From NCBI GenBank assembly GCA_964454265.1, contig CAYVXD010000004.1:2409-66408 (forward strand): a stretch of DNA of 64,000 nucleotides. Direction: 5' to 3'. Origin of the DNA: an uncultured Candidatus Sumerlaeota bacterium (GTDB lineage Bacteria; Sumerlaeota; Sumerlaeia; MWCT01; JAUWMI01). Every line of letters begins with the position of its first letter. Position 1 is the first letter of the stretch. Under the pieces are notes generated by a model. It did not search any database. It had not been told where the DNA came from and worked only from the letters and a program-made list of their open reading frames with translations. Both the position numbers and the translations under genes were made by a program. Below are positions 333 through 51,165 of this stretch, in pieces.

Positions 333-703
333 TGAAGTCCATCTCCTTTACTTGAGTTGATAATGCGAGTTAAACACTGGCTTTACTACTTATTTATTGC
401 AAATATGTCAAAGCAAATATTGCCGTTTCACCTTACCGCTTCCTTTTAGGTGTGCATATGGATTTAGGGTATAGGCACTTGGCAAGAATCTGGTATATAT
501 GTATTCGTAGCAGTCCGTTAAAGTAGGGGCACGCCGTGGCGTGCCCTTACAATGTCCATCAAAATAATCCCATGCATTGCATTCAAAAGCAATTAGCCGC
601 AGACGAACGCGGATACAACAGCAGGGCATATTTTTCAGAGGAAATGGGTATCACATATCGTATTGCGTTTCGGAAAAAACATCACCCGGAATGCTTGATG
701 GAT

Positions 704-2131
704 CTACTCCGATCTTCCTGGTGACTTCAGTGTTGTAGTGAGCAGAGCGGTCCCTTCTATAAAGAGGCTTTTCAACTCGTAGAGGCTCTTCACGCCAAGC
801 AGTCGCCGGATGATAAACCCTGGACGTAAGTGAAATGTGCGAATGGCTTTGTTACGCAGTTGCCAGAGCTTCTCCCGGGATAATTGTGGAGTCTCGTAAA
901 CAGGAAAGGAAATGGAATTATCGAGTGTTGTCACATCCGAAGTGACCAGCCCATCCTGTAAGGCCTTTTGGCGGAATTGTGTGCCCATGCGGGGCATGGC
1001 GACGTTGAAGGAGGCAAATTCGGGCTTCAGCTGAAGCGCAAGCCTGATGGTGGCGTTTATATTCTCCTCTGTGTCGCCAGGTAAACCAAGGATAAAATGG
1101 GCCAGAATGCGAATGCCCACCTTCTTGCACATTGCCACCGTGTGCTTGACCTGCTCGCGGGTAAAGGGCTTCGAGTATTGGCCTAATAGCTTCTCGTCCG
1201 CAGTTTCAATGCCGAGTTGAATGGTATGACATCCGGCGAGCTTCATCAGGGTCAATAATTCCTCGTCCAGGACATTAACGCGCGACAGGCAAACCCAGGT
1301 AAACCGCAGTCGCTCGTCAAGCATTCGATTCAGGAAACGCCGCGTGCGTTCCTTGTTTGCGCCGAACGTAAGGTCTTTGAACCAGAGCTCTTTAATTCCA
1401 AGCGATTTAAGATAATACATTTCTTCTATCACATTATCAATGTTGCGGAACTTAAACCCCAGCTCGCCGCCGATGCAGTAGTCGCAACGGAACGGACATC
1501 CGTAGTCGGTCAGAATACCTGCATAAGGAATCCGGCGGCCGTGCGGAATGCGATAGCGTTCGTACGGAAACAGATCGTAGCGCGGTGGTGGCAGTGAAAA
1601 TTCTCCGCGCGGAAACGCCCGGGTTCCCGGCACAATGGCGCCGGAGGGCGCCCGATAGCTGAGCGACGCAAACGGCCGCTCCTCGCCGTTAAGAAAATCA
1701 ACCACCTCAGAAGACGTGAAGTCGAGTATCACTGCGCGCAAATACGGATGTTCCTCCAGAAACTTCTTATCCTCGGCGAAAAGGATATCACCATTGCCAA
1801 TAAACGTGTAGCGATTTGGATGCGTCTGGCTGAGCTGACGCAGGAGGGCAAAATCCTCCACCCAGGAGACCGCACCCGTCAGAAACACAATGATTTCGCA
1901 TCCTGAAGCCTCAATCTGCTTCAGTGTTTCCTGTGGTGTGAGGCGATCGGCAATCGCATCAATAACGCAAAGATCAAAGTGCGGATTTAGAATGCCGCTG
2001 AGTACAATGAGATCATAAGGTCCCCAGTAGTAGTGCGCCTTTGAGGTGTGACTGCAATAGTAGTCGCGCATATAAATGTTTTTACCCGGCGGGTTCAGCA
2101 ACAGAATTTTTGGCCGTGCGTTCGACATCAT
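704..2131 (-). CDS. B12-binding radical SAM enzyme (class B; HpnJ/BchE-like architecture)
   Basis: 475 aa. N-terminal B12-binding Rossmann-like segment (KILLLNPPG) and radical-SAM cysteine triad CPFRCDYC. Paralog of the next gene. Confidence 0.8.
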   Translation of the reverse strand: MMSNARPKILLLNPPGKNIYMRDYYCSHTSKAHYYWGPYDLIVLSGILNPHFDLCVIDAIADRLTPQETLKQIEASGCEIIVFLTGAVSWVEDFALLRQLSQTHPNRYTFIGNGDILFAEDKKFLEEHPYLRAVILDFTSSEVVDFLNGEERPFASLSYRAPSGAIVPGTRAFPRGEFSLPPPRYDLFPYERYRIPHGRRIPYAGILTDYGCPFRCDYCIGGELGFKFRNIDNVIEEMYYLKSLGIKELWFKDLTFGANKERTRRFLNRMLDERLRFTWVCLSRVNVLDEELLTLMKLAGCHTIQLGIETADEKLLGQYSKPFTREQVKHTVAMCKKVGIRILAHFILGLPGDTEENINATIRLALQLKPEFASFNVAMPRMGTQFRQKALQDGLVTSDVTTLDNSISFPVYETPQLSREKLWQLRNKAIRTFHLRPGFIIRRLLGVKSLYELKSLFIEGTALLTTTLKSPGRSE

Positions 2132-2185
2132 TTGCAGTATGTTTCCATTGAAATACGCATCGCACCTTGGCCGTAAGGCACAAGG

Positions 2186-3607
2186 CTATTGATTCTGGAT
2201 GAGGTCTTTCAATTGAATCAGACCATATTTCAGGTAGTTATACAGCACTCTTGGCGATCGGGCCCGCAGGATTGTCTTCCATATCACCTTTGGCCTGAGA
2301 TAGAATCGGCGCATTGCAATGCGTCGCCACCTGCGCAGCTCCTCGAGGCTCATCGTGAAGGTTGGCATGGCCGGCTGCGAATATGCAGCCGTTGGGGTCT
2401 CGCCTGATCGGAGCAAGCCTTCCTTTACGGCCATCTCGTATAGTTCAGTCCCTGGGAATGGATACACATAGAATATTTCGAGAAAATCCGGGTCGAGCTG
2501 CTTTGCGAATGTGATGTCCTCCTGAAGTGTGTCTGGAGTATCCCAGGGTAGGCCGAATAGCAAATAGATGCTCGACAGAATGCCTGCTTCGCGCGTCAGT
2601 TGCATTGCGCGGTACGCGTCTTCCAGTGTGGCGCGCTTGTTCATCTTTTCCAGAATCTCGCGGTTGCCCGTTTCCACACCATAAGCGATCAACCAGCAGT
2701 GAGCCTTGTTCATCCACGCCAGCATTTCCTCGTCAATGGTATCCACCCGGCTGTTACAGACCCATTCGATATCGAGCCCTCTATTCAGAATCTCCTGACA
2801 GAGCTCAATAACCCAGGCTTTGTCGGTCGTAAAGAGGTCCGAGCGAAAGAGAAAGTTACGAATGTGGTAACGCTCAAGGCATTCCTCCATCTCGGCGATG
2901 ATGTTTCCTACCGAACGAACGCGATTTTTCCGTCCTGCAACCTGCGTGGCCAGGCAGAAAATGCAATCAAAAGGACACCCGCGATTTGTGACAATTGTGG
3001 TTTGCGGTTCACCCGTGTCAGGGCGAACATACAGTTCGTTCCGCACCAGATGACGCGCCGGAAATGGTAAGGTATCCAGGTCGTCAATAAAGGGTCGCAG
3101 CGGGTTCCGTATGATCTCTCCCCTGCTATTGCGGTACGTAAGCCCCAGGATTTCCTCCCTGGGTTTTCCTCCGCCGAGTTCCCGGCACGTTTCTTCGTAT
3201 TCGCCGCGAAGTACTATGTCGAGCACAGGATGCTGGTCAAGCGTGGAAACGTCGAGCGCATTAAAGTGCGCGCCCTTGGCAATAGTCACAATGTTCGCGT
3301 TAACCTGTTTGGCGACTTTGGCGGCGCGAAGGTCCTGCTCTAGCGAGGGCGTTGTAATGCTCAGCACAAGAAAATCTGGCGCATAAGACTTGAGCTCAGC
3401 CTCCAGCTCACTCCAACCCAACCGCTCGCCCGGATAATCCACAATCCGACACTCGCATCCTGCGTGTTCGAATTCTGCGGCTGCATACATGAGGTCAATG
3501 GGAGGACGAAGAGAAACGGTCTTGAGATCTTCGATTGGGGTCTGGCAGCGATCCTCGCGGATGTACAATCCCGTGGGTGGGACTATTAGCAGCACCTTAG
3601 GTGTCAT
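2186..3607 (-). CDS. B12-binding radical SAM enzyme (class B), paralog of 704..2131
   Basis: 473 aa. N-terminus KVLLIVPPTG and radical-SAM motif CPFDCIFC. 54-bp gap to the downstream paralog on the same strand. Confidence 0.8.
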   Translation of the reverse strand: MTPKVLLIVPPTGLYIREDRCQTPIEDLKTVSLRPPIDLMYAAAEFEHAGCECRIVDYPGERLGWSELEAELKSYAPDFLVLSITTPSLEQDLRAAKVAKQVNANIVTIAKGAHFNALDVSTLDQHPVLDIVLRGEYEETCRELGGGKPREEILGLTYRNSRGEIIRNPLRPFIDDLDTLPFPARHLVRNELYVRPDTGEPQTTIVTNRGCPFDCIFCLATQVAGRKNRVRSVGNIIAEMEECLERYHIRNFLFRSDLFTTDKAWVIELCQEILNRGLDIEWVCNSRVDTIDEEMLAWMNKAHCWLIAYGVETGNREILEKMNKRATLEDAYRAMQLTREAGILSSIYLLFGLPWDTPDTLQEDITFAKQLDPDFLEIFYVYPFPGTELYEMAVKEGLLRSGETPTAAYSQPAMPTFTMSLEELRRWRRIAMRRFYLRPKVIWKTILRARSPRVLYNYLKYGLIQLKDLIQNQ

Positions 3608-3847
3608 CGGTGTACTTTAAAAGTTCTCTAAAATCATACGTTTCATTCCAGACATATTATAGGAGCGTATTGAACCATTGGGGTACAGTCAAGCGTTTAT
3701 TCAGCAAGAAGCGTTGCGTAATGGCTGCTTCTTGCTCGTGAGCAGTCGGAGCAAAAACAGGAGTATGTTTCGTCTCATAGAATTATGATTCTTGGGATTC
3801 CATAGTGGGTTTGTCTTAAGCATCTATTGGGGATCAGTTCATCAATT

Positions 3848-3875
3848 GTAGGGGCGTTTAATTAAACGCCTCTAC
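3848..3875. repeat. 28-bp palindrome GTAGGGGC-GTTTAATTAAAC-GCCTCTAC
   Basis: Same GTAGRGGC arm family as 43683 and 49737, with a different palindromic 12-bp core. Lies in the 377-bp gap between the FAD oxidoreductase gene and the radical-SAM pair. Confidence 0.75.
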
Positions 3876-3984
3876 TCATGGCGCAAACGTTATAAGCATT
3901 CTGGAAAAAGCCTTAAAAGGCCAAAAATTTTGCTCCCAAATAGTCCGCTACAGATTCCGAAGAACCAGAATTATTCCGGGTTTA

Positions 3985-5403
3985 TCAATCAATGATCCTG
4001 AGGCGTTTGAATTGACCGACGTCCTGATACCACGCTGCAGTGGGATTTGGCTTCGTATGCAGATAATCTGCTGCCTGTAGGCCCATGTAAATTGAATGAT
4101 CCATATTATTATGATGAAAGAGGCCCTGGCGACCGATCGTCATGAGGCCGGGGAATTGCTGTAAGAACTGCCAGAGACGTCCCAGGCGAGTGCTGTATTC
4201 AAGGTCGTAGAGCGGATATGCGTGCTGAATAGAGAAGACAGAAGTTGCGATAACGTCCTCGATTCGATATAGGCCGGTTTGAGCAATTTGGCCAGATACC
4301 TTCGTGGCCAGCTCATCCGAAGGCATGCTCCAGATCTTGTCTCCCTCGTAGCAGGTCACCTCAGCACAAAGCAGGGCCTTGTCCGCCGGCCCCAGCGAGG
4401 GATCGAAATTCTTTGTTTCATACGCCCGGTTGACCAGCATGTCTGGCTCCGGAAAGTAGAGCCAGCTATTAGGGCTGATCTGTGGCTTTCCAACCACAAT
4501 GAAGACCAGTCGCATGGCAATATATTTAAAATCACGGAGCATACCCCTGATACTCTCATCAGAATGATGCTGTAGAAGCATTCCGGCAAGCTCGGTAACC
4601 GGGATGGAGGAGATGCAGAACTTCCCTTCCGCGTGTAGTTCCTGACCGTTACTCGTGTATGTCACGCGGCAGCCGTTTGCTCGATCATTATCAACGTGTA
4701 TGACAGTTGCGGACGTCCGGATTTGCCCCCCGTTGGCACGCACAAGTTCTGCCAGCCGCTCAGGCAGCTTTGCAATCCCTCCTTTTACGTAGATGAACGT
4801 CTTGAGCGTTGTGGAAGAGTTATCGCGCTTGCCTGATACAATTTCTTTAGCGAGTGTTAGCAGTCCACCAGCCGAGACTCTCACGCTAACGATATCAGCC
4901 GAGAGTTGGCGCGGGTCAATCCCCCAGACTTTCTTCGTATAGGGCAGAATCATTGCTCGATAAAGGCTTGGCCCAAATGCCTTTCGCATAGCTGCATCGT
5001 AATTATGGTAATGAGATTTCTTCCCGCCTCCGCGTACCCGTTCGAATAAATAGCTCAGCATGAAACGGCTCAGCGCGATTGGCCCAAGATGGCGCAGCAG
5101 CTCTAATGGCGAAATGGGGTACGCCAGGTATCGTCCGCGAAAGTACATCTGACTCTTTCGCACGACGGTCAGGAGATGATCGCCGAGGAGCTCGTGGAGA
5201 AAGTCGCGAATCTCGGGCAGTTCGGTATGAATGCGATGCGGGCCCAGGTCGGTCACAATGCCCTGGATCTGAAGACTTCGAGCAAGGCCGCCAACTTCGC
5301 GTTCTTTCTCCAGCACCAGCACGTCGTACTCCCCGAGCCTCGTGAGACGATAGGCTGCTGCGAGTCCTGCCAGGCCAGCACCAAGGATAATAACGCGCTT
5401 CAC
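3985..5403 (-). CDS. FAD-dependent oxidoreductase (amine-oxidase / protoporphyrinogen-oxidase / UDP-galactopyranose-mutase-like superfamily)
   Basis: 472 aa. N-terminal dinucleotide-binding motif VIILGAGLAGLAAAY...GG. C-terminal YPLYD...GRQG.FHHNNMDHS block shared with the paralog at 51166..52527. Confidence 0.65.
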   Translation of the reverse strand: MKRVIILGAGLAGLAAAYRLTRLGEYDVLVLEKEREVGGLARSLQIQGIVTDLGPHRIHTELPEIRDFLHELLGDHLLTVVRKSQMYFRGRYLAYPISPLELLRHLGPIALSRFMLSYLFERVRGGGKKSHYHNYDAAMRKAFGPSLYRAMILPYTKKVWGIDPRQLSADIVSVRVSAGGLLTLAKEIVSGKRDNSSTTLKTFIYVKGGIAKLPERLAELVRANGGQIRTSATVIHVDNDRANGCRVTYTSNGQELHAEGKFCISSIPVTELAGMLLQHHSDESIRGMLRDFKYIAMRLVFIVVGKPQISPNSWLYFPEPDMLVNRAYETKNFDPSLGPADKALLCAEVTCYEGDKIWSMPSDELATKVSGQIAQTGLYRIEDVIATSVFSIQHAYPLYDLEYSTRLGRLWQFLQQFPGLMTIGRQGLFHHNNMDHSIYMGLQAADYLHTKPNPTAAWYQDVGQFKRLRIID

Positions 5404-5435
5404 GATCTCAATTCCACCTGTGGGTTAATGGCGAG

Positions 5436-6116
5436 TTAGCGAAAAAAGCGGTATTTGAGCAGCACATATACGGCGATAAGGAAATCGCGCCAGCCGATCT
5501 TCTTGCCTTCCTCTACGGTTCGGGCCGTAAACGTGACCGGCACCTCAATAATTCGTTCGCCCTGGCGCATAACTTTTGCGGTTACCTCAGGACAGAATTC
5601 AAATCGGCGACACGTGAGGTGAAGCTCCTGAGCCACCTCACGGCGGAAGGCTTTATATGCCGTGGCTTCGTCGGTGATTTTCTGGCCGTAGAGAATAGTG
5701 ACGAGGAAGGCCAGGATTTTGTTTGCCACGTAGTTTGCCAGACGCATGCATTTGACTTCGCCAAGAAACCGCGATCCGTAGGCCACCCGCGTTCGGCCGT
5801 CCACAATTGGCTGAATCACCGCAGGAATCTCTTCGGGATTATACTCCAGATCTGCGTCCTGGATGATGACAATATCGCCGGTCGCGTGTTTGAGACCTGT
5901 GCGGATTGACGCACCCTTTCCCCGGTTTTCTGTATGGGTGACTACGCGCGTATCGGGCTTCAATGCTTCCTTTTTCAGAATCTCGGCCGTGCCGTCAGTG
6001 GAACAATCGTCTACTAAAATGAGCTCCTTCTCGATGGGTAAGGCGCGAACCCGCTCAAGAACCGCTTCAATCAGATCTACTTCGTTATAGATAGGAATAA
6101 TGAACGAAAGTTTCAT
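5436..6116 (-). CDS. glycosyltransferase family 2 (polyprenol-phosphate sugar transferase / DPM1-like, soluble form)
   Basis: 226 aa. SFIIPIYNE...LILVDDCSTDGT...DADLEY motifs typical of GT2. 32 bp upstream of the FAD oxidoreductase gene on the same strand. Confidence 0.8.
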   Translation of the reverse strand: MKLSFIIPIYNEVDLIEAVLERVRALPIEKELILVDDCSTDGTAEILKKEALKPDTRVVTHTENRGKGASIRTGLKHATGDIVIIQDADLEYNPEEIPAVIQPIVDGRTRVAYGSRFLGEVKCMRLANYVANKILAFLVTILYGQKITDEATAYKAFRREVAQELHLTCRRFEFCPEVTAKVMRQGERIIEVPVTFTARTVEEGKKIGWRDFLIAVYVLLKYRFFR

Positions 6117-6467
6117 CGCGGGGAGTCTGTGGCCTTTACGTAAGTCTCAGGGTTGATCGGGTTGTTCCTCTTGTCTTTTAAATTGCAAACAATGACAGGC
6201 ACGACATGATGCCGGCTGGCAGCGCCGTAATACCGTTTCTGGTTATGCAATATGAACGCAATGCAATGGAAAAGCCTCAGGCGTGCCTTCGTAAGATTCA
6301 AGCAACCGGCTTTTTGAATTTCAACTGATAGTGGAGGGGCTGAGATTTGTCAATGGCTTTTGTCGTACGGTAAGGGCTAGTTTTATCATTGAGAATTTTC
6401 TTGGTAGGGAATGAAAAATCACGGGCAAGTTGAAAATGCGCCTGTGGCGTGATGCCCGTGCCACTGG

Positions 6468-6583
6468 TATTGGCCTTGGTGGAACCTTGCTACTGTTATT
6501 GGCCTTGGTAGAACCGTGTCACTGCTAATGGCCTTGGTGGAACCTTGCTACTGTTATTGGCCTTGGTAGAACCTTGTCACTGT
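6468..6583. repeat. tandem direct repeat, 4 x 29 bp (equivalently 2 x 58 bp), consensus tattggccttggtRgaaccKtgYYactgY
   Basis: Four contiguous units at 6468-6496, 6497-6525, 6526-6554 and 6555-6583 with no spacers. Flanked by the similar sequences gcccgtgccactggtattggc (6452-6472) and gcccgttggtattcggc (6611-6627). Confidence 0.85.
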
Positions 6584-6658
6584 TATTATTTTTGGTGGAA
6601 CGGGCATCCTGCCCGTTGGTATTCGGCTGAATCCTTTAGAGAAAAAACATTTTCTACG

Positions 6659-7589: not shown

Positions 7590-7964
7590 CTAATGGCTTG
7601 GCTTAAGCGGAAGGCGTGTGCGGCGAATTCGTCTCTTCTCAATGACAATGATGCAATTTGGCAACTCCTGGTTTGGAATCGTTTCAAGAGCACGCCTTAA
7701 ACGTGCTACAGCTTCTTGCTCACTGTAATTTCCGCCCCGGAAGAGTATTATGCCAGGCCCTTCGGCTTGCGTCAGAGCCAAAAGCCGGGGATAGTCCAAA
7801 TCCGCAGTGACTATCACTCGATGCTCATTTCGAGCGCGTTCTAAGATTGCTATATCCGAAGCACGATCTAGTCCTACTTCGACGGCATGAACCGCATCAT
7901 GACCTTGTCGTACAAGCCAGACAGCCAAACCTGGTGAGAGCGGCATGTCAATCAGAAACTTCAC
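7590..7964 (-). CDS. DUF5615 family PIN-like (Mut7-C-like) putative toxin
   Basis: 124 aa. [11 protein letters not shown]...VIVTADLDY pattern of DUF5615. ATGA start/stop overlap with the upstream DUF433 gene. Confidence 0.6.
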   Translation of the reverse strand: MKFLIDMPLSPGLAVWLVRQGHDAVHAVEVGLDRASDIAILERARNEHRVIVTADLDYPRLLALTQAEGPGIILFRGGNYSEQEAVARLRRALETIPNQELPNCIIVIEKRRIRRTRLPLKPSH

Positions 7965-8288: not shown

Positions 8289-8378
8289 TGGCGGAGAGGG
8301 AGGGATTCGAACCCTCGGGGCAGTTCCCCACCCACACGCTCTCCAGGCGTGCTCCTTCAACCACTCGGACACCTCTCC
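8289..8378 (-). tRNA. tRNA-Ser (anticodon GGA)
   Basis: Reverse complement folds as a 90-nt cloverleaf: acceptor GGAGAGG/CCTCTCC, anticodon stem CACGC/GCGTG with loop CTGGAGA, long variable arm, T-arm GAGGG-TTCGAAT-CCCTC, discriminator G, encoded CCA. Confidence 0.85.
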
Positions 8379-8700
8379 GCGGGATTCTCTAAAAAGCATA
8401 AAATCGAAATACCTGCAATCGCCTTTTCTTATTCTTGATTCCAATTTTAATTGAAAGGTTAGCATTGGCTGCGTATTTTTCAACTGTTTTTTTTTGCTGC
8501 CCTCACCTTATTATAGCCACGGAGACACAAAGGCACAGAGATTTTCAAAGATTTCCTTCAGCTGGGCTGTTGAAGACATATATTGACAACTTTTTGCTCT
8601 GCCCAATAGAATCCCTTACAGATTCTTTGTAAACTTGCCGATACTGCATAATGGCCTACTTGCGACGATTGAGATTGGTGAATGCATATAGCGGAACCGC

Positions 8701-8812
8701 GGAGACACAGAGCATTAAATTGTAGATTGCAAAATGCAAAAGGCAAATTTGAAATTTGATATTTGCAATTTTCATTTTGCATTTTTGGGTATTTCAGGAT
8801 CTCTGTGTCTTC
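8701..8812. repeat. nested inverted repeat: GGAGACACAGAG ... CTCTGTGTCTTC enclosing an AT-rich imperfect palindrome (tgcaaaatgcaaaa / ttttgcattttt)
   Basis: Outer arms lie at 8701-8712 and 8801-8812. A further direct copy ggagacacaaaggcacagag sits at 8521-8540. The element lies in the 640-bp non-coding stretch between the tRNA-Ser gene and the first GT4 gene. Confidence 0.6.
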
Positions 8813-9026
8813 GTGTCATGCGTGCCATACTGATTTCCGGAGAGGAGTATCAAAAACATTACCGCAGACCCTGTGGAAAACTTTTGAAAAAAGGCCTTAA
8901 AACAGAGCTGATTTTGACTTGATTTCCAACACACCATCTCTGTGGCAATCTTTTATGAGCCTCAGGCTCATTGATCAAAATACGCCATAAGGCGAAACTG
9001 TAATAGAGGGAATTCTGCGCTCCGCA

Positions 9027-10145
9027 ATGAACATTGCTCTCGACATTCGTATGATCAATTATTCAGGGATCGGAACGTACATTCGTGGCCTCCTGGAGGG
9101 CTTTTCAGCGCTTGCGGATGAAGATGTGGGCTTCTATTTGATTGGCAGCGAGCCGCAAGCACCTCGCGTTCCGTCAGGGCTGCGCTATGAGTATGGCTGT
9201 CTCTCCCTGCCGATTTACAGTGTTCGCGAACATCTCTTCTATCCGCGCACCATGCCGAATGTGCTCTGCCTCCACTACCCGCATTATCATTGTCCAGCAT
9301 CTTTTCGGGGTCGGCTGGTGGTGACGATACACGATTTGAACCATTTTCTCTTTCCCGATTACTTACCCTCGCATTTGCACCATATGGCGGCCACCTGGGT
9401 TCTGAAGCGCTCGATACGTCGTGCAAGCAGAATTCTTACGGGCTCTGAGTACATCAAGGGAGAATTGATCGAATATCTTCACGCTGAGGCAGAGAAGATT
9501 GACGTAATCCCTCACGCGGTGAGCGAGGAGCTCAAACCATGCGACGATCAGGAACGTCTTGCTCAATTTCAGCAAAGACATCAACTGCCAGCTCAATACC
9601 TGCTTGCCGTGGGGATCAACAAGCCGCATAAGAATTATGTATTTTTGTTGCGGGTGCTGGCCCACTGCTGGCAGAGCAAGGCGGTCGAGCTCCCGCTTGT
9701 GTTTTGTGGTATTTCGGAGCGAAGCAGGGCGAATCTCGTAGCGACTGTTGAATCGCTGAACATAGGACCGCGTGTGATCTTTCTGCCGTATGTTAGTTAC
9801 CCAGATCTGTTTTTGGTATATGCAGGGGCAACGGCTCTGGTTTTCCCGTCGCTGTACGAAGGATTTGGCTTGCCGCTGCTTGAGGCCATGAAGATGAGTG
9901 TCCCAATTGCTGCATCAAAACGACCGCCCATGCCTGAGGTTGCAGGCGATGCAGCGGTTTGGTTTGACCCAACCGACATGGATGATGCAGGGGCAGCAAT
10001 TCAGCGCGTGGTCGGCGACCAGACGTTGCGCACGTCGCTCATCAAACATGGCCGCGAGCGGGCTCAGACGTTTAGCTGGCCGAAAAGCGCCCGCGCAACT
10101 CTGGATGTCTATAAACGCATTCAAGACATGTGTGGCATGCAATGA
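9027..10145 (+). CDS. glycosyltransferase family 4
   Basis: 372 aa. C-terminal GT-B motif FPSLYEGFGLPLLEAM. Confidence 0.8.
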   Translation: MNIALDIRMINYSGIGTYIRGLLEGFSALADEDVGFYLIGSEPQAPRVPSGLRYEYGCLSLPIYSVREHLFYPRTMPNVLCLHYPHYHCPASFRGRLVVTIHDLNHFLFPDYLPSHLHHMAATWVLKRSIRRASRILTGSEYIKGELIEYLHAEAEKIDVIPHAVSEELKPCDDQERLAQFQQRHQLPAQYLLAVGINKPHKNYVFLLRVLAHCWQSKAVELPLVFCGISERSRANLVATVESLNIGPRVIFLPYVSYPDLFLVYAGATALVFPSLYEGFGLPLLEAMKMSVPIAASKRPPMPEVAGDAAVWFDPTDMDDAGAAIQRVVGDQTLRTSLIKHGRERAQTFSWPKSARATLDVYKRIQDMCGMQ

Positions 10146-11242
10146 GAGTAGCACTTGTTCACGACTGGCTCAATGCAATGCGGGGTGGCGAGAAGGTGCT
10201 GGAGCTCCTGTGCGAGCTCTTTCCAGAGGCCGAAATTTTTACATTATTCTACGAGCCGGACAACGTTTCGGCCTTAATTGCGTCCAAGCTAGTACACGCA
10301 TCACCACTCCAGCGGTTTCCATGGGCGCGCAAAGCATATCGTCATTACTTGCCGCTTTACCCTTGGGCGATTGAGCGCTTCCGGCTGCAGGGATTTGATC
10401 TGGTAATCTCAACAAGCCACTGTGCGGCAAAGGGCATCCGGGTTCCGCCGCCAGCCCGCCATGTGTGTTACTGCCTAACGCCCATGCGCTACATTTGGGA
10501 TTTGTTTGATGTCTATTTTCCGCGCCACGGCCCGCGGCCATTGAGCTCGCTGGCTATGCGGTTAATGGTCAAGCGCCTGAGGCGCTGGGACGTAGCGACT
10601 GCTCAGAGAGTAGATTTTTTTATTGCAATTTCCGAGTACATTGCTAGAAAGATTTCCAGGTATTATGGCCGAAGCGCAGCCGTTATCTATCCGCCGGTTG
10701 ATACGGAGTTTTTCACACCGGGTAGTGTAAAGAAGTCCAGACAGTATCTTATCGTTTCAGCCTTGGTTCCGTACAAACGCACTGAAATTGCTATTGCAGC
10801 TTTTAATAAACTCGGGCTTCCTCTGGTGATTGTTGGGGAAGGCCCTGAGGCGCGACGACTGCACGCAATCGCGAAGGGCAATATCACATTCCTGGGGTGG
10901 GTTACAAACGAGCGGCTGCGGCAGCTTTATCGCGAGAGTCAGGCGCTTATATTCCCGGGCGAGGAAGATTTCGGCTTGGTGCCCGTTGAAGCGCAAGCGT
11001 GTGGCACACCGGTGATTGCTTACAAGAAGGGCGGAGTCATGGAGAGCGTGGTGGATGGAGTGACCGGTTGTTTTTTTGAGCCACAAACTGCGGATGCACT
11101 GCGAGAAGCTGTAGAGCGGTTTGACCCGATCCGGTACGAGACCGCGACTGTCCGGAAGAATGCAGAGCAATTCTCAAAGCAATGCTGCGCCGAGCAGCTG
11201 CGCGAATTTGTTGCATTGAAAATGGCGGAGAAAAATGGCTAG
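10130..11242 (+). CDS. glycosyltransferase family 4
   Basis: 370 aa. GEEDFGLVPVEAQACGTPVIAYKKGG motif. The start may instead be the internal ATG at 10142 (MRVALVHDW). Confidence 0.8.
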   Translation: MWHAMRVALVHDWLNAMRGGEKVLELLCELFPEAEIFTLFYEPDNVSALIASKLVHASPLQRFPWARKAYRHYLPLYPWAIERFRLQGFDLVISTSHCAAKGIRVPPPARHVCYCLTPMRYIWDLFDVYFPRHGPRPLSSLAMRLMVKRLRRWDVATAQRVDFFIAISEYIARKISRYYGRSAAVIYPPVDTEFFTPGSVKKSRQYLIVSALVPYKRTEIAIAAFNKLGLPLVIVGEGPEARRLHAIAKGNITFLGWVTNERLRQLYRESQALIFPGEEDFGLVPVEAQACGTPVIAYKKGGVMESVVDGVTGCFFEPQTADALREAVERFDPIRYETATVRKNAEQFSKQCCAEQLREFVALKMAEKNG

Positions 11243-12632
11243 ACGAGACCATAACATGAATATCCTGGGGGCAATTGTACTAACCGATCTTGTTGCTACA
11301 GCTATTGCACTGATCGCAGCTTACTTCTTCCGATTCCATGCCAATATTATTCCGGTGACCAAGGGTTACCGCCCAGAAGATTATCTGCGGCTCCTGCCAT
11401 TTGCCGTGATCCTCTGGATGGTATCGTTGTATTTTGTTCACATGTATCGGCCCGAGCCGCGGGTGTTTAACATGAGCGTGTTCGTCAAAATTGTGAAGGG
11501 CTCGCTATTGGCAATCGTTCTGGTGATCGCCGGGAACTTTTTTGTTCGAGAGGCGGAATATGCGCGAGTGCTCTTCCCCATTGCGATGGTATTTAGCATT
11601 GTCAGTCTGACTGCTGGCCGCTTTGGCGTCGAACGATTCCTTATGTATTTACGCCGTAAGAAAGGGATTGGCATTTCGCGGGTTATCATTGTAGGTGCTA
11701 GCCAGGTGGCCCACGGAATTGGCGACAAAGTCTGCCAGTATCCTCAGTACGGATTTTCGTTGCAGGGTTATGTATCTGATAAGCCTGAGGACGTGGGGCA
11801 AACTATCGGCTCGGTAAAGGTAATTGGCACAACCGACGAGTTGAGTGATCTCGTGAAGCGCTACAATGTTGATCAGGTGCTTGTAGCTCAGCCAGGGCTT
11901 GTTCGGAATCGTATTCTGACGATGATTGACGAATGCGAGCGCGAATTCGTTGAACTCAAGGTTGTCCCTGATCTGCTTGAGATGGTGGCTAGCGAAATAA
12001 GCGTTGAGGAAATTCACGGCATCCCCTTTTTCAGCATAAAGGCCACTCCGCTGCAAGGGTGGAATTTGATTCTAAAGCGAGTGTTTGACGTAACTGTTTC
12101 GGCTTTCTTGCTGGTGGTAATGTCTCCTGTTATTCTGTTTATTTCGCTTCTGATCAAACGCGACTCGGCTGGCCCCGCCTTCTTCAAGCAGGAGCGCATT
12201 GGCTTGGACGGGAAACGGTTTTTGCTCGTTAAATTTCGGACGATGATTTATGATGCCGAGCGCGAGACTGGCCCGGTCTGGGCGAAACCCAACGACCCGC
12301 GTATTACACGTATTGGCAAGTGGCTGCGATCCTATGATCTGGATGAATTGCCTCAGCTCATTAACGTCTTGCGCGGTGATATGAGCCTGGTGGGGCCACG
12401 ACCTGAACGGCCCTTTTTCGTCGAGCAGTTCAAGGAACAACTCCCTCGCTATATGACACGCCATAACGTTAAGTCTGGCATCACTGGGTGGGCACAGGTG
12501 AATGGCTATCGACAGAATAGTTCAATCACTGAGCGCCTGAAGTACGATCTCTTTTACGTTAAGAATTGGACGCTGTGGTTCGACATCAAAATAATTCTAA
12601 TGACCCTCTTTAAGAGAAAGATTATAGGGTAG
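11235..12632 (+). CDS. polyprenyl-phosphate hexose-1-phosphate transferase (WbaP/PssA-type initiating sugar transferase)
   Basis: 465 aa. N-terminal TM helices, central Rossmann/CoA-binding-like region, C-terminal bacterial sugar transferase domain (LLVKFRTM...DELPQLINVLRGDMSLVGPRP). An alternative start is 11256. Confidence 0.85.
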   Translation: MARRDHNMNILGAIVLTDLVATAIALIAAYFFRFHANIIPVTKGYRPEDYLRLLPFAVILWMVSLYFVHMYRPEPRVFNMSVFVKIVKGSLLAIVLVIAGNFFVREAEYARVLFPIAMVFSIVSLTAGRFGVERFLMYLRRKKGIGISRVIIVGASQVAHGIGDKVCQYPQYGFSLQGYVSDKPEDVGQTIGSVKVIGTTDELSDLVKRYNVDQVLVAQPGLVRNRILTMIDECEREFVELKVVPDLLEMVASEISVEEIHGIPFFSIKATPLQGWNLILKRVFDVTVSAFLLVVMSPVILFISLLIKRDSAGPAFFKQERIGLDGKRFLLVKFRTMIYDAERETGPVWAKPNDPRITRIGKWLRSYDLDELPQLINVLRGDMSLVGPRPERPFFVEQFKEQLPRYMTRHNVKSGITGWAQVNGYRQNSSITERLKYDLFYVKNWTLWFDIKIILMTLFKRKIIG

Positions 12633-34626: not shown

Positions 34627-36048
34627 TTGAACGCCTCGGTCTCCCGATTGCTCCATAAGCTCCTCCTCGTTCACGTGGCGCTCCTACTGTTTTTAACGCC
34701 ACTTTTCCTTTTGCCTCGTCTGGCGACATACAATCCTGTTATTGATTCCAAGAAGCTGATTGCATTCTTTCTCTTGTGCTCCTTTTTCATTTTCTATTGC
34801 ATCCGTATTGTGGTTGCGGGCATTCCGCGCTTTCAGGTGTCGCTGGTGAACGTATCGGCAGGACTGTTGCTAGTGTCTGTGATAATTGCATGTGTGGCGT
34901 CAGGAAACGTGATCTATTGCTTTCAAGAGGCGTTGATTTCCATCTTCCTGCTGGGATTGTTCTTTGTGCTTCAACCGCTCCTGACAGGGCATCAGGAGAT
35001 TAAAAAGTTGCAACTGGTGGCGATACTGGCTGCTGTCCTCGTCAGCATATACGGCTTGCTTCAGTATTTCAATCTGAACGTGCTAGCCGGCGCGTTTCCT
35101 TACGTGCGTCCGAGCAAAGAGAGCCGGAACTTTATTCTATCAACCATCGGCAATCCTGAGTACCTGGGCGGCTACCTGGCGCCATTTGCCGTTATGTTGA
35201 TTCCGCAGCTGCTGGCGCATCGCAAAGTAATGGCCCGCTTCCTCAGGGCTTTAGGGTTTGTCCTGTTTGCATTCGTGATGCTTCTGACGGGTGCGCGCGG
35301 CGCATGGCTCGGGATGCTTGGCGGCGCTCTGTTTGTTGCATATTGGATAGTGCGCTGGAAGCCGTTGCGTATTTCGCCACGCGCTGGCTGGATTTCGGTG
35401 ATTTTAGGAGCGATAGTGGTTTTGCTGCTGGTTGTCTTTTCGTTTCCTAATCCAATTAATACGCGCGACGCACGGGTAATGGGTCGCTTCAAGGAGCTGG
35501 CTGATCCGAGATCAGAATCCATCAAACAGCGCATTCTGTTTTATGCAATCTGTGCTGAGATGGTTGGCGACCGTCCGATTGTGGGTTTTGGCGAGGGCAT
35601 GTTTCAGGTTAACTTCTACGAGTACGTGAAGCGGCTCGTTGAGAAAGATGAACGAGCGGGTATGACACTATTTGCGATTGATCTGGAAAACCGTGTGGCT
35701 GAGCATGCGCATAATGATTATTTGCAATTTTGGGTCGAGCGTGGCAGTATGGGGCTTTTCCTCTTTGTCCTGTTGCTGCTGGCGTACTTTTTCGCGGTGA
35801 ACGGTCAGCTGCGTACTGCTCATTGCGGCAGCGCAGTCTGGCTCCTGCAGCTGAGTCTGAGCGGTGCTATCGTCTGCCTGTTGATTAGCAGCACGTTTAG
35901 CTTTCCCCTGCATTTGCCTACTCGAGCGTCGCTCTTCTGGATTCTGCTTTCTATGAGTGTATGTTTAGCATTTCCGGCTTCTCGAAATGATGCTACAGGC
36001 AGAGATGCCTGTGCTACCGATGCAAGGCCGCGAGGCGATGAGGCGTAG
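34627..36048 (+). CDS. O-antigen ligase / Wzy_C-domain polytopic membrane protein
   Basis: 473 aa and about 10-12 TM helices. A periplasmic loop carries the HAHNDYLQ...ERG signature of the O-antigen ligase family. Confidence 0.7.
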   Translation: MNASVSRLLHKLLLVHVALLLFLTPLFLLPRLATYNPVIDSKKLIAFFLLCSFFIFYCIRIVVAGIPRFQVSLVNVSAGLLLVSVIIACVASGNVIYCFQEALISIFLLGLFFVLQPLLTGHQEIKKLQLVAILAAVLVSIYGLLQYFNLNVLAGAFPYVRPSKESRNFILSTIGNPEYLGGYLAPFAVMLIPQLLAHRKVMARFLRALGFVLFAFVMLLTGARGAWLGMLGGALFVAYWIVRWKPLRISPRAGWISVILGAIVVLLLVVFSFPNPINTRDARVMGRFKELADPRSESIKQRILFYAICAEMVGDRPIVGFGEGMFQVNFYEYVKRLVEKDERAGMTLFAIDLENRVAEHAHNDYLQFWVERGSMGLFLFVLLLLAYFFAVNGQLRTAHCGSAVWLLQLSLSGAIVCLLISSTFSFPLHLPTRASLFWILLSMSVCLAFPASRNDATGRDACATDARPRGDEA

Positions 36049-36050
36049 CT

Positions 36051-37202
36051 GTGAAAGTTCTTTTTCTTCTGAACGCCTATGAGGAAGACGGACCTGGATT
36101 GTTGATCTTTTCAATTATTCAAGAAATGCAACGCTCTGGCGCAGTTGCATGTTCCACTGTGGCACTGTCGAGAGGAGGGCCGCTGCAAGAGCGATTTGAC
36201 GCGCTCGGAGTACCTACAGCCGTGGTGGGGATGAAAAGCGTTTGTGACATTGCAGCGATCGGGCGATTTATTCGGCATCTAAAACAGGAGCGCTGCAGCG
36301 TGCTTCATACAAATCTCATCCGGGCCGATCTGATTGGTCGGATGGCGGCCAAGCTGGCCGGGGTTCCTCTTATCGTGACTACGGAGCACGGCATTCACAC
36401 GTGGGATGTGAAAGGTCGGGTTGTGAAATGGTTGGTGCGTCTCTTGTATCGTTTGACAACGCGGTTTACCGATCGGATTATTGCGGTCTCCGAGTTTGTA
36501 GCACAGGATCTCAGGCGTAATGGCATCTCCGATGTGAAGATCACACGCATCTATAACGGGATTGATACTGATCCGTACCATCCGCTGCCAGAGGAGCAAC
36601 GGCGTGAGCTTTGCCCATACCTGGCAGACTGGGAGGTGCAGCATCTGGTCGGGGTTATAGGCAATATGGTGGCGCTGAAGGGACACGCCTGGTGTGTTCA
36701 GGCGATTCCTGCGATTGTCGCGCAGCACCCTGACACGCTCTTTGTCTTCGTTGGCAAAGGACCGCTGCGTCAGGAGATCCAGCAAATGGTGAGCTCTCTT
36801 GGCCTTGAGAAGCATGTGCGGTTCACGGGGCATCTGTCGGCATTGTTGCCACGGCTCATGGGATCGCTTGACGTGCTGGTTCAGCCGAGTCTGGTAGAAT
36901 CGTTCGGATTGGCAGTTGTGGAAGCTCAGGCATGTGGGGTGCCGGTAGTTGCCACAAGAGTAGGAGGATTGCCCGAGATTGTTGTTGATGGTGAAACCGG
37001 GTTTTTGGTGACATCAGAAGATCCTGAGGCACTGGCAGACAAGGTCAATGTGCTCCTGAGCGAGCCTGTGCTTGCGCGAAGTATGGGTAGAAGGGGACGG
37101 GAGAAAGTCCTGGCCCAGTTTCAGATTCAGCAGACAGCCAGTGCTTATGCGGAGCTTTATCGAAAGTTGGCTAGGGAAAAAGCCATAGACAGCGAATCAT
37201 GA
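36051..37202 (+). CDS. glycosyltransferase family 4
   Basis: 383 aa. QPSLVESFGLAVVEAQACGVPVVATRVGGLPE motif. Confidence 0.8.
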   Translation: MKVLFLLNAYEEDGPGLLIFSIIQEMQRSGAVACSTVALSRGGPLQERFDALGVPTAVVGMKSVCDIAAIGRFIRHLKQERCSVLHTNLIRADLIGRMAAKLAGVPLIVTTEHGIHTWDVKGRVVKWLVRLLYRLTTRFTDRIIAVSEFVAQDLRRNGISDVKITRIYNGIDTDPYHPLPEEQRRELCPYLADWEVQHLVGVIGNMVALKGHAWCVQAIPAIVAQHPDTLFVFVGKGPLRQEIQQMVSSLGLEKHVRFTGHLSALLPRLMGSLDVLVQPSLVESFGLAVVEAQACGVPVVATRVGGLPEIVVDGETGFLVTSEDPEALADKVNVLLSEPVLARSMGRRGREKVLAQFQIQQTASAYAELYRKLAREKAIDSES

Positions 37203-37222
37203 ATGCCAGGGATTCATAACTA

Positions 37223-38221
37223 GTGGCAGACTATCAGGTGCACAGCATTCAGGAGCGACATTATCGTCTGTGGGATGACTTTGTTGCTGCTTCGCCGCAG
37301 GGATGTTTCTACCACACCAGCTGCTGGAAACAGATCATTGATACCGGGACAACGTATACCATGCGTTTGTACGGATGTTTCCTTGGTGGCACGCTTGTGG
37401 GCGGCTGTACACTGACTGAGAAGGTTCAGCTGGGCCGTCATGCAGCGGTAAACGCCTTGACCACGCCGTATGCCGGGTTTCTGCTGCCGTCTACTTCGGG
37501 GACGAAGATTTCCGATCAAACCTCCCACGAGCACGCAATTCTCTCTGCTTTGAGTCGCTTTCTCGAAGCGCGGTTTCATCAGATTACGCTGTACAATTCG
37601 CCGGGACTGGCAGACGTGCGGCCGCTGACGCAGAGCGGCTGGAGCGCGGTGCCGTGTTATACGTATGTGCTGGATATCAGCGAGCCGAGGCGAGTGTGGG
37701 AACGTATGGATGGAAGCGTGCGACAGGCAATTCGAAAAGCCGTGAAACAGCAGTTTCATGTTGGTACGTCCACAGATGTGGATAGCTTTTATGGTCTCCT
37801 GGACAAGACACTTGGCAGGCGCCGCTTGCCAAATTTGATTCCCAGACGCCTGCTTGATACATTGATGCACACCGACAGTCTGAAAGATCGTCGGTTCTTA
37901 CTCACAGCGCAGCCCAAGAGCGGAGGACTTGCGAGCGGCATCCTGGTGCTGTGGGATCAGACCACTGCCTACTACGCGCTTGCTGCCACTGACCCTGCTC
38001 TGTACGGTAGCGGTGTCCACTCGCTCTTGATCTGGGAGCTGATTCAGCGTCTTTCACCGGTTGTTGGGATACTGGATTTTGTTGGTGCGAATATTCCCAG
38101 CATTGCACGATTTAAAGAAGGGTTCAACCCACAGCTCGAGACCCATTATTGTGTTGAGAAATGGCGATCCCTTCTATTGAAATGGAGCAAACGGCTGGTT
38201 CGTCGCCTCCGGGGTTATTGA
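37223..38221 (+). CDS. FemAB-like / BioF2-like GNAT-fold acyl- or aminoacyl-transferase
   Basis: 332 aa with a bipartite GNAT-like organisation (YHTSCWKQII ... ILVLWDQTTAYYALAATD). No exact family can be confirmed from sequence alone. Confidence 0.45.
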   Translation: MADYQVHSIQERHYRLWDDFVAASPQGCFYHTSCWKQIIDTGTTYTMRLYGCFLGGTLVGGCTLTEKVQLGRHAAVNALTTPYAGFLLPSTSGTKISDQTSHEHAILSALSRFLEARFHQITLYNSPGLADVRPLTQSGWSAVPCYTYVLDISEPRRVWERMDGSVRQAIRKAVKQQFHVGTSTDVDSFYGLLDKTLGRRRLPNLIPRRLLDTLMHTDSLKDRRFLLTAQPKSGGLASGILVLWDQTTAYYALAATDPALYGSGVHSLLIWELIQRLSPVVGILDFVGANIPSIARFKEGFNPQLETHYCVEKWRSLLLKWSKRLVRRLRGY

Positions 38222-38383
38222 AGTAGAAAAATTCCTGGCAATTCCCTGGTGCAATGGTGTATGAAGCTGCGCGCGATGCACGCCAAAGACCAGCTGTGAT
38301 AAACTGAACCCCTTTTTCATGGGGGAGAAAAGACTCATCGTGCGTATTGTCTTGAGACTCTTTCTACAAATGAGGCTGCACTC

Positions 38384-39160: not shown

Positions 39161-39232
39161 ATGGGTAGCCAAGTAGCGCACTTTAGCGGCTTGTGGTGCA
39201 AGACCGGCAGCTTCCGGCTGAAAGCCTAGTCC

Positions 39233-49736: not shown

Positions 49737-49764
49737 GTAGGGGCAGATCATGATCTGCTCCTAC
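49737..49764. repeat. 28-bp palindrome GTAGGGGC-AGATCATGATCT-GCTCCTAC
   Basis: Sibling of 43683-43710. Lies 43 bp upstream of the GspF-like start codon. Confidence 0.8.
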
Positions 49765-50573: not shown

Positions 50574-50593
50574 TGTGCCTCTCCTTTCATCCA

Positions 50594-51052: not shown

Positions 51053-51165
51053 TTGTCTCCTCCTCGTTACAGTAATTTGAGTGTTGCGACTTGAATTGCT
51101 TTTAACGAGTAATGATGTGACGATCCAGCCTGACGTGAGGATATTATTGTCCTTTGCATAGCTAT

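Follow-up and report, generated by a model that had tools for sequence, protein, structure and literature searches.

A cassette of four same-strand genes on a contig from an uncultured Candidatus Sumerlaeota bacterium (GenBank CAYVXD010000004.1; the 64,000-nucleotide stretch that we analyzed is referred to as the window) recurs in the same gene order across phyla. It encodes a family 2 glycosyltransferase (GT2), a flavoenzyme resembling UDP-galactopyranose mutase (UGM), and two paralogous radical S-adenosylmethionine (SAM) proteins, henceforth referred to as rSAM1 and rSAM2. We tentatively read the cassette as a module in which a sugar carried on polyprenyl phosphate is modified for use in a glycan or glycolipid of the envelope, an interpretation to which we give a little less than an even chance. 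The cassette had been noticed from the DNA alone, as a possible lipid-headgroup or glycolipid tailoring pathway (the original prediction). Literature searches on this gene combination, on Sumerlaeota radical SAM proteins and on cobalamin radical SAM enzymes together with undecaprenyl gave nothing relevant, and we found no curated family that describes the four-gene combination.

Conservation of the cassette

The open reading frame (ORF) coordinates agree with the original prediction, which had placed four same-strand genes at 704-6116. On the minus strand, 32 bp separate the GT2 and flavoenzyme genes (5404-5435), 377 bp the flavoenzyme and rSAM1 genes (3608-3984) and 54 bp the two radical SAM genes (2132-2185). 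The predicted domain assignments of the four proteins and the paralogy of the radical SAM proteins were likewise borne out, by Pfam and by full-length alignment.

To survey the distribution of the cassette, 80 loci were drawn from a genome scan with an rSAM2 alignment, and the four window proteins were then mapped onto all of them; gene calls on metagenomic contigs were read as well. The loci (numbered with the prefix L) span Sumerlaeota, Omnitrophota, Hinthialibacteria, bacteria of the candidate phyla radiation (CPR), DPANN archaea, cyanobacteria, Chloroflexota, Aminicenantes, Elusimicrobia and Planctomycetota, among others. The order GT2, flavoenzyme, rSAM1, rSAM2 occurs in at least nine other distinct loci (L002, L003, L004/L005, L019, L024, L027, L063, L091 and L093/L094), which come from Sumerlaeota-like and Omnitrophota genomes and have unrelated flanks. 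Five loci from Hinthialibacteria-type genomes (L015, L016, L021, L022 and L023) have a variant order, in which the flavoenzyme, rSAM1 and rSAM2 genes are followed by a tetratricopeptide repeat (TPR) gene and a third radical SAM gene, rSAM3. The flavoenzyme gene is followed immediately by rSAM1 in 15 of the 15 loci that have a cassette-type flavoenzyme, and the gap between them is just 9-31 bp, operon-like, in L015, L016, L019, L021 and L023. Compared with the window proteins, those of the more distant cassette loci are identical at 61-76% for the GT2, 51-70% for rSAM1, 43-69% for rSAM2 and 31-52% for the flavoenzyme. The cassette is not a chance neighborhood: the original prediction had been staked on the four genes staying together in related genomes, and they are co-conserved across phyla.

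The cassette probably extends past position 704, where the original prediction had ended it, because the next gene, a TPR lipoprotein gene that is cut off by the window start (Table 1), is homologous to the TPR genes that come right after rSAM2 in six loci (L013, L015, L016, L021, L022 and L023; E 3e-9 to 2e-3). It lies beyond a 371-bp gap from rSAM2. In the near-identical contig L091 the TPR gene encodes 365 aa with faint YfiO/BamD-like matches, and a GHL10 protein gene comes next. By this homology, the TPR lipoprotein is probably a fifth cassette member.

Homologues of rSAM1 at 60-89% identity are abundant and mostly named Candidatus Sumerlaeota (BRC1). Those of rSAM2 include Sumerlaeota, Omnitrophota and Hinthialibacter, and a full-library search placed 2,419 clusters at 50% identity in the rSAM2 family (E ≤ 1e-30).

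The third paralogue, rSAM3, is ~43% identical to rSAM1 and forms its sister clade (bootstrap 99). Its gene lies after the TPR lipoprotein gene downstream of rSAM2 in seven Hinthialibacteria/Omnitrophota-type loci (L015, L016, L021, L022, L023, L035 and L060; in L035 the position is held by an unclustered 410-aa ORF), giving three class-B-type radical SAM genes in one operon.

Table 1 Features of the window discussed in the text
Feature	Coordinates	Strand	Description
GT2	5436-6116	-	226 aa; DPM1/ArnC/PpgS-like polyprenyl-phosphate sugar synthase type
Flavoenzyme	3985-5403	-	472 aa; GTG start, N-terminal GxGxxG; PRK07208 group, resembling eukaryotic-type UGM
rSAM1	2186-3607	-	473 aa; radical SAM protein with N-terminal B12-binding-type Rossmann domain
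rSAM2	704-2131	-	475 aa; paralogue of rSAM1, large uncharacterized family
TPR lipoprotein gene, truncated	332-1	-	Has a signal peptide and a lipobox-like Cys; cut off by the window start
Palindrome	523-550		Imperfect; begins GTAGGGGC
Palindrome	3848-3875		28 bp, imperfect; begins GTAGGGGC
Tandem repeat	6459-6601		Between the GT2 and Hsp20 genes
Toxin-type gene	7590-7964	-	DUF5615/PIN-like
tRNA gene	8292-8378	-	
GT4, GT4, Bac_transf phosphoglycosyltransferase	9027-12632	+	Pfam assignments; divergent from the cassette
Second envelope-glycan cluster	34627-41355	+	Six genes, listed in the text
RmlA-like nucleotidyltransferase	49833-50594		Apparent operon with the next two
RmlC-like cupin	50594-51169		
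Second UGM-like flavoprotein	51166-52602	-	PRK07208 type
GT-C glycosyltransferase	52771-54177	+	GT87 family; divergent from the second flavoprotein

The glycosyltransferase and the flavoenzyme

Strong homology points to a polyprenyl-phosphate sugar synthase type for the GT2. The protein scores 124 bits against PF00535 (Glycos_transf_2), and its residues 1-222 align with residues 23-249 of the Pyrococcus dolichol-phosphate mannose synthase (PDB 5mlz, E 7.5e-24), an alignment that spans the catalytic domain and the interface helices; ArnC structures match at E ~2e-19. The DAD motif is intact (D87-A88-D89), and no transmembrane helix was predicted in the protein. Its top NCBIfam matches are AglJ (109 bits, cut-off 325), ArnC (88, cut-off 529), Dol-P-hexose transferase (80, cut-off 375) and PpgS (67, cut-off 370); all are under cut-off and none assigns the sugar transferred.

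The flavoenzyme matches the Pfam domains Amino_oxidase (90 bits) and NAD_binding_8, and the PRK07208 group to which it belongs has "hypothetical protein" models only. It scores under both curated UGM models (PF03275 GLF, 17.8 against 26.3 bits; TIGR00031, 59.8 against 303.75), which we take to describe the bacterial-type enzyme. Its best PDB sequence matches are all UGMs, led by that of Trypanosoma cruzi (4dsg, E 1e-18, residues 3-448). Every match better than E 1e-9 is a UGM, and the first protein of another kind appears at E 3e-8 and covers the FAD-binding N-terminus only. Identity to the eukaryotic-type UGMs of T. cruzi and Aspergillus fumigatus (3ute) is 20-23%.

The active-site residues of the T. 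cruzi enzyme have been mapped (G61, H62, V63, R176, N201, Y317, R327, Y395, R423, Y429 and N433; PMC4192007). Seven of these 11 are identical in the flavoenzyme (H62 as H56, R176 as R175, Y317 as Y316, R327 as R326, Y395 as Y396, R423 as R425, and N433 as N433), and the seven are invariant in 34-39 homologues. The shared set includes all three arginines and the flavin-side histidine. An AlphaFold2 model of the protein (predicted local distance difference test score, pLDDT, 89) has a UGM as its top Foldseek match (TM-score 0.81). The only low-confidence segment of the model, residues 176-196, begins at R175, which aligns with the catalytic Arg176 of T. cruzi UGM; we take this segment to correspond to the mobile active-site flap of UGMs. 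With moderate confidence, these sequence matches point to UGM-like chemistry.

A second PRK07208-type flavoprotein, 27% identical to the first, is encoded elsewhere in the window, and its motifs (GGH; GRFGLWLYEIGNMDHS) are nearer to those of canonical UGM. The presence of this paralogue suggests that the cassette flavoenzyme has diverged in substrate. The second gene stands in an apparent operon with genes for an RmlC-like cupin and an RmlA-like nucleotidyltransferase, and is divergent from a gene for a GT87-family GT-C glycosyltransferase; together the region (49833-54177) looks like a nucleoside diphosphate (NDP)-furanose and GT-C pathway.

The radical SAM pair

Both radical SAM proteins have a class-B-type architecture. 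In Pfam, rSAM1 matches Radical_SAM (PF04055, 76 bits) and the B12-binding domain (PF02310, 45.8 bits against a cut-off of 32.1), and rSAM2 matches Radical_SAM (68 bits) with no B12-binding match. The two align over their full length (28% identity, residues 3-451 against 7-449, E 8e-47), so the B12-type domain of rSAM1 has a homologous N-terminal domain in rSAM2, one that Pfam misses. A CxxxCxxC motif is invariant in each family (C211/C215/C218 in rSAM1, C212/C216/C219 in rSAM2).

We compared the pair with curated families. The best NCBIfam model for both is HpnJ (TIGR03471), with 245.1 bits for rSAM1 and 165.9 for rSAM2 against a cut-off of 577.6. For rSAM1 it is followed by BchE (TIGR02026; 169.3 bits, with 81.8 for rSAM2, cut-off 481.35), ApyD, Sden_1168 and AprD4, and for rSAM2 by PhpK (114), BchE (82), a ladderane model (81) and AprD4 (81); none of these matches reaches its cut-off. 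The AprD4 scores are 131 bits for rSAM1 and 81 for rSAM2 against 500, those of HpnR 88 and 29 against 650, and those of TIGR04072 ("lipid biosynthesis B12/radical SAM") a weak 97 and 81 against 360. Identity to genuine HpnJ is ~24-30%. The closest solved structure is AprD4 (PDB 6fd2; sequence E 4e-31, identity 23-24%), which is also the top fold match of the rSAM1 model (pLDDT 92.6, TM-scores 0.76/0.79); the model superposes on AprD4, QCMT, TsrM, TokK and OxsB. AprD4 is a sugar-ring diol dehydratase whose B12-like domain binds no cobalamin (reviews).

A rough phylogeny (neighbor joining on p-distances, 100 bootstraps) was computed for 130 class-B-type radical SAM proteins from the fetched loci together with references taken from annotated plasmids, namely genuine HpnJ of Mycetohabitans and Paraburkholderia, and BchE. 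The clades of rSAM1 (bootstrap 100), of rSAM1 with rSAM3 (99) and of rSAM2 (96) all exclude the HpnJ and BchE references, and the deeper branching is unresolved by neighbor joining; HpnJ, rSAM1 and rSAM3 were monophyletic in 0 of 100 bootstrap replicates. At other positions, too, cysteines are invariant in both families and missing from HpnJ and BchE: C21 of rSAM1 and C26 of rSAM2, in an N-terminal R..(R)C motif, and C304 of rSAM1 and C301 of rSAM2, in AGCW/AGCH. In addition, one more cysteine is invariant in rSAM1 (C243) and one in rSAM2 (C335), so that rSAM2 has C26, C212, C216, C219, C301 and C335 as its invariant cysteines. The extra cysteines might ligate an auxiliary Fe-S cluster or donate a hydrogen atom. 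Judged by these sequence comparisons, rSAM1 and rSAM2 are members of uncharacterized families and neither is HpnJ or BchE. The original prediction had allowed that they might cluster with BchE or another characterized non-lipid family; they form separate bootstrapped clades. As to their chemistry, the nearest relatives give a weak indication, with ring contraction by HpnJ and dehydration by AprD4 on one side and the methylases on the other.

Gene neighborhoods

The genes around rSAM2-type loci are largely of glycan type. Among 79 such loci, a GT2 gene lies within 7 kb in 31 and immediately upstream on the same strand in 10. The other recurrent neighbors encode class-B radical SAM proteins, GT9, NodB-type polysaccharide deacetylase, class I methyltransferase, NDP-sugar 4,6-dehydratase/epimerase and other radical SAM proteins. 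A DPM1-like GT2, 41% identical to that of the window, is sandwiched between class-B radical SAM genes in L017, L020 and L034, and rSAM2-like genes in CPR bacteria and DPANN archaea adjoin GT2 genes. PMT_2-type GT-C genes adjoin L004/L005, L017, L020 and L056. We rejected GT-C as a regular neighbor of the cassette, as most neighbors of ~600 aa proved to be M61 peptidases, an amidase, DUF6807 proteins or proteins without hits.

The unit of two GT4 genes and a Bac_transf phosphoglycosyltransferase gene that is divergent from the cassette in the window is also found in L002, L091 and L093. It is not beside the cassette in more distant loci; the association is lineage-specific, and the unit probably belongs to the same glycan pathway.

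Among plasmid-borne proteins, the one closest to rSAM1 (29% identity across 99% of its length) is encoded on Lawsonia intracellularis plasmid 1 (L086, NC_008012.1). Its cluster contains GT2 genes and genes for GalE, SIS, GHMP kinase, HAD-IIIA hydrolase, a second radical SAM protein and five class I methyltransferases. By gene content this uncharacterized glycan locus is heptose-like, and since the host is a cultured pathogen it could be an experimental handle.

One distant locus has a hopanoid context. In a metagenome-assembled genome of a Xenococcaceae cyanobacterium (L043, 5879-20664), a genuine hpnH (product at 556 bits against a cut-off of 225) and a gene for squalene-hopene cyclase (SHC; E 1e-165) flank an rSAM2-like gene (42% identical). 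The genes in between encode a DPM1-like GT2, a NodB deacetylase, a second GT2 and three paralogous polytopic membrane proteins of ~570-595 aa with no Pfam or PDB match. A homologue of HpnI or HpnK is absent from this locus, which may represent an HpnIJK-independent route to hopanoid decoration. We searched the window and ~93 loci (~1.5 Mb) with SHC, HpnH, HpnI and HpnK by tblastn, and matches came from the source loci L043 and L087 only. SHC and HpnH were found neither in the window nor in any locus besides L043, and HpnI and HpnK have no homologue outside the reference locus. The original prediction had noted no SHC or hpn gene in the window, and this holds for window ORFs of at least 120 aa. 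Five neighboring proteins were grouped as "rSAM + DUF3463-cluster"; that of L043 is the only genuine HpnH among them, and the remaining four, which are SPASM/twitch enzymes, were rejected as HpnH-like. SHC has been reported in some Omnitrophota (PMC12324291).

Several further neighborhoods were recorded. In a complete genome of Candidatus Nealsonbacteria (L025, CP179887.1) and in Saccharibacteria (L028), a pair of GT2 and rSAM2-like genes is ringed by up to six paralogous radical SAM genes (cluster 9, products of ~300-365 aa), unusually dense for small genomes. Locus L024, which is from an uncultured bacterium and is close to the Omnitrophota cassettes, has a gene (8578-10386) directly downstream of its cassette for a 602-aa protein without a Pfam match, with several N-terminal transmembrane helices and a large C-terminal domain, which might be an unrecognized GT-C-like transferase. 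The same position in L063 (11582-13396) is held by a 604-aa protein without hits, which has fewer predicted transmembrane helices and no detectable similarity to the L024 protein.

Two other parts of the window deserve mention. Its second envelope-glycan cluster (Table 1) encodes Wzy_C (O-antigen ligase/polymerase-like), GT4, a FemAB-like acetyltransferase, LpxA, a rhamnosyltransferase-like GT2 and another GT4; the LpxA gene suggests that the organism makes lipid A. The toxin-type gene and the tRNA gene separate the cassette/Hsp20 region from the GT4-GT4-phosphoglycosyltransferase unit, and relatives have a HicAB pair there.

Intergenic DNA

Within the 377-bp gap between the flavoenzyme and rSAM1 genes, the ~120 bp proximal to rSAM1 (~3608-3728) are kept in close relatives (alignment with L091, L093 and L002). 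A TATAAT/GATAAT box lies inside this block at 3661-3656, ~49 nt upstream of the rSAM1 start codon. The remainder of the gap is variable and contains one of the palindromes listed in Table 1. The rSAM1-rSAM2 pair of this lineage is probably transcribed from its own promoter, separate from that of the GT2 and flavoenzyme genes. Rfam found only the tRNA gene and gave no match in the gap, and a cobalamin or other riboswitch there was therefore rejected. Scans for sigma-70 promoters and intrinsic terminators were set aside because their counts were no higher than in shuffled sequence.

The two imperfect palindromes lie ~155 nt past the rSAM2 stop codon and ~110 nt past the flavoenzyme stop codon, and neither has a T-run after it. 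Their shared beginning, GTAGGGGC, occurs a third time at 49737, a frequency not above chance. A family resembling repetitive extragenic palindromic elements was rejected, as three window copies were reached in 10 of 100 shuffles and a search for the hairpin pattern found none. Between the GT2 and Hsp20 genes, a tandem array holds 4.9 copies of a 29-bp unit, with a 58-bp super-period and 80-94% matches; the unit is present as a single copy in the relatives L093 and L094.

A possible pathway and its alternatives

In the pathway that we propose, the GT2 would use a nucleotide sugar as donor and load its sugar onto polyprenyl (undecaprenyl) phosphate on the cytoplasmic side of the membrane, as DPM1, ArnC and PpgS do; this is the step that strong homology favors. 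The UGM-like flavoenzyme, with reduced FAD, may open and re-close the sugar ring, a conversion of the pyranose-to-furanose type through a flavin-N5 adduct, to which we give moderate confidence. Its substrate would be a diphospho- or phospho-activated sugar, and it would supply or convert the sugar handled by the GT2. The two radical SAM proteins might each abstract a hydrogen atom from the sugar, in two successive radical modifications. Here our proposal is weak on chemistry: rearrangement, ring contraction, deoxygenation or C-C bond formation would be closer to the relatives HpnJ and AprD4 than simple methylation. Gene context alone suggests the last step, in which the modified lipid-linked sugar would be flipped and transferred to an outer-envelope glycan or glycolipid by enzymes encoded elsewhere (a GT-C, ligase or polymerase), possibly with the TPR lipoprotein on the periplasmic or outer-membrane side. 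The genes would thus form two sub-units, the GT2 with the flavoenzyme, and rSAM1 with rSAM2 (and the TPR lipoprotein).

A number of observations weigh against this proposal. In several Sumerlaeota genomes, rSAM1 (L001) or rSAM2 (L006, L007 and L009) stands alone among housekeeping genes, and L013, L014 and L018 have the radical SAM pair and yielded no homologue of the flavoenzyme or GT2 within the available locus sequence; the four genes are thus not an obligate unit. The window cassette has neither a flippase nor a GT-C gene, the sole GT-C gene of the window lies 47 kb off, and GT-C genes adjoin only ~5 of the 79 loci. In the flavoenzyme, four UGM active-site positions are changed and fixed in the family (G61 to P55, V63 to R57, N201 to L200, and Y429 to H431), the bacterial UGM models are failed, and an oxidase or dehydrogenase role is possible. 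The protoporphyrinogen oxidase fold matches the model nearly as well as UGM does (TM-score 0.77-0.80 against 0.81). We dropped the Foldseek fold alone as a discriminator because these scores are too close, and the argument for UGM therefore rests on sequence matches and active-site residues. The B12-binding domain match of rSAM1 is bona fide, which leaves room for methylation, and the position of the L043 rSAM2-like gene between genuine hpnH and shc leaves room for a hopanoid or lipid acceptor.

Methylation defines an alternative with the same pathway logic, in which both radical SAM proteins would be cobalamin-dependent C-methyltransferases (GenK- or Fom3-like) that attach at least one methyl group to unactivated carbons of the sugar, yielding a branched or C-methylated sugar. 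We consider it unlikely, though a serious contender. The above-threshold B12-binding domain of rSAM1 agrees with it, as do the reviews' account of most characterized class-B enzymes as methylases, the cobalamin-dependent methylases QCMT, TsrM, TokK and CysS that come after AprD4 among the fold matches, and the rank of PhpK as second-best NCBIfam model for rSAM2. Against these stand the order of the rSAM1 models, in which the non-methylases HpnJ and BchE precede the methylase models, the order for rSAM2 (HpnJ, then a PhpK match that covers the core only), the lack of a B12-binding domain detectable by Pfam in rSAM2, and the absence of cobalamin from AprD4, the closest solved structure. The extra invariant cysteines of both families do not discriminate methylation from the other readings. 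Tailoring of the headgroup of a membrane lipid, whether a hopanoid side chain or another polar lipid, from a glycosyl group to a carbocyclic cyclitol in the manner of HpnI/HpnK/HpnJ or calditol synthase (Cds), is the framing that the original prediction had given the cassette. It is in our view improbable, even with HpnJ as the top-scoring characterized model for both radical SAM proteins, with SHC in some Omnitrophota, and with a GT2 and deacetylase between hpnH and shc in L043 that resemble the HpnI/K/J logic. The HpnJ scores are under half of the cut-off, and genuine HpnJ falls outside the bootstrapped clades; the GT2 resembles DPM1 and ArnC and is not the HpnI-like enzyme that this framing supposes; HpnI and HpnK homologues are absent from L043 and elsewhere in the sequence searched, and SHC and HpnH from the window and all the other loci. 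The context also differs, with glycan genes as the conserved neighbors and rSAM2-like genes beside GT2 genes in CPR bacteria and DPANN archaea. The words "glycolipid tailoring" fare better: they are right in a narrower sense, because the likely substrate, a polyprenyl-phosphate-sugar, is a glycolipid intermediate, and are not supported in the sense of a membrane-lipid headgroup pathway.

It is somewhat less probable again that the cassette is two independent operons side by side, one in which the GT2 and flavoenzyme make a furanose or other sugar donor and one in which rSAM1 and rSAM2 (with the TPR lipoprotein) act on an unrelated substrate. The conserved upstream block and -10-like box in the 377-bp gap, the seven loci with single or paired radical SAM genes lacking the other two, and the much faster evolution of the flavoenzyme (31-52% identity against about 43-76% for the other three) would all fit. 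The flavoenzyme-rSAM1 order in all 15 flavoenzyme loci, with gaps of 9-31 bp at the shortest, and a four-gene order retained across phyla with unrelated flanks are not expected of unrelated operons. That the radical SAM pair modifies an isoprenoid lipid, for example by cyclization or cross-linking of a polyprenyl chain, seems very unlikely to us. Its model is GrsA/GrsB, two paralogous B12-domain radical SAM enzymes that act sequentially on the isoprenoid chains of archaeal tetraethers (PMC13459092), and the weak TIGR04072 matches would agree with it. These scores are far under the cut-off, the nearest structural and HMM (hidden Markov model) relatives act on sugars or tetrapyrroles, and the deacetylase, dehydratase and GT9 context points to sugar chemistry. 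Within the polyprenyl-phosphate sugar pathway that we favor, we also entertain a more specific and quite unlikely version, less likely than C-methylation and only slightly more likely than headgroup tailoring. A flavin-dependent ring-opening mutase and two radical SAM enzymes would together turn a polyprenyl-phosphate hexose into a carbocyclic or skeleton-rearranged pseudo-sugar for envelope glycans and, in L043-type cyanobacteria, for hopanoids. The same joint reading would make the cassette a hitherto unrecognized multi-phylum bacterial, carrier-lipid-based counterpart of calditol and cyclitol-ether formation, and an HpnIJK-independent hopanoid route.

Comparison with known systems

The cassette resembles a hybrid between the polyprenyl-phosphate sugar pathways (DPM1, ArnC/ArnT and PpgS/Rv3779) and the glycosyltransferase/radical SAM logic of HpnI/HpnJ. 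It belongs to neither; the cut-offs of HpnJ, BchE, AprD4, bacterial UGM and the specific GT2 equivalogs are all missed. Its GT2 matches the class of DPM1, ArnC/ArnT, PpgS/Rv3779 and the GtrB-type pathways, and a GT-C gene adjoins some related loci, as in pathways that feed a GT-C. In contrast to those pathways, the window cassette includes no flippase or GT-C, and its GT2 lacks the C-terminal transmembrane helices of DPMS, ArnC and GtrB. ArnD, in the Arn pathway, modifies the sugar once it is on the lipid. We know of no polyprenyl-phosphate sugar pathway that includes radical SAM enzymes or a UGM-like flavoenzyme.

Like the cassette, the HpnI/HpnK/HpnJ system for the bacteriohopanetetrol cyclitol ether combines a GT2 with a class-B-type radical SAM protein that is proposed to rearrange a sugar ring. 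The cassette differs in having two radical SAM proteins, a UGM-like flavoenzyme and a DPM1/ArnC-like GT2, the window has no HpnK, shc or hpnH, and HpnJ is without the invariant cysteines carried by both cassette families. The apramycin 1,2-diol dehydratase AprD4 shares with the cassette proteins an N-terminal Rossmann-like domain followed by a radical SAM barrel, and acts on a sugar ring. Its substrate is a soluble aminoglycoside and it has a reductase, AprD3, as its partner; the cassette has no such partner. Eukaryotic-type UGM is like the flavoenzyme in full-length similarity, in the majority of its active-site residues and in fold (which protoporphyrinogen oxidase matches nearly as well), and differs at the four fixed positions and in the low overall identity. 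For Cds, which makes a five-membered carbocycle from a glycosyl headgroup, and for the sequential paralogous pair GrsA/GrsB, which likewise makes five-membered carbocycles (reviews), the likeness is by analogy only, drawn from the review descriptions; the cassette stands in a context of bacterial glycan genes and not of genes for tetraether lipids.

Implications

Both radical SAM proteins belong to large families that lack a characterized member and a curated model; over 2,400 clusters (50% identity) fall to the rSAM2 type alone, and they range over candidate phyla, cyanobacteria, CPR bacteria and DPANN archaea. The cassette offers these families a testable biochemical setting, with four genes, a DPM1-like GT2 as entry point and UGM-type catalytic residues in the flavoenzyme. 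The cassette is small, is conserved widely and lends itself to experiment; the organisms that carry it are uncultured. Across the recovered homologues, most of which are named Sumerlaeota, rSAM1 and rSAM2 are 60-70% identical, a degree of sequence conservation that suggests a core function. If the enzymes turned out to be ordinary sugar C-methylases, the cassette would extend O-antigen-like diversity in a routine way. Otherwise, solving the cassette would bring a new type of reaction to the biosynthesis of sugars and glycolipids and would define a component of the envelope of Sumerlaeota and Omnitrophota, and it could account for hopanoid-linked variants in cyanobacteria.

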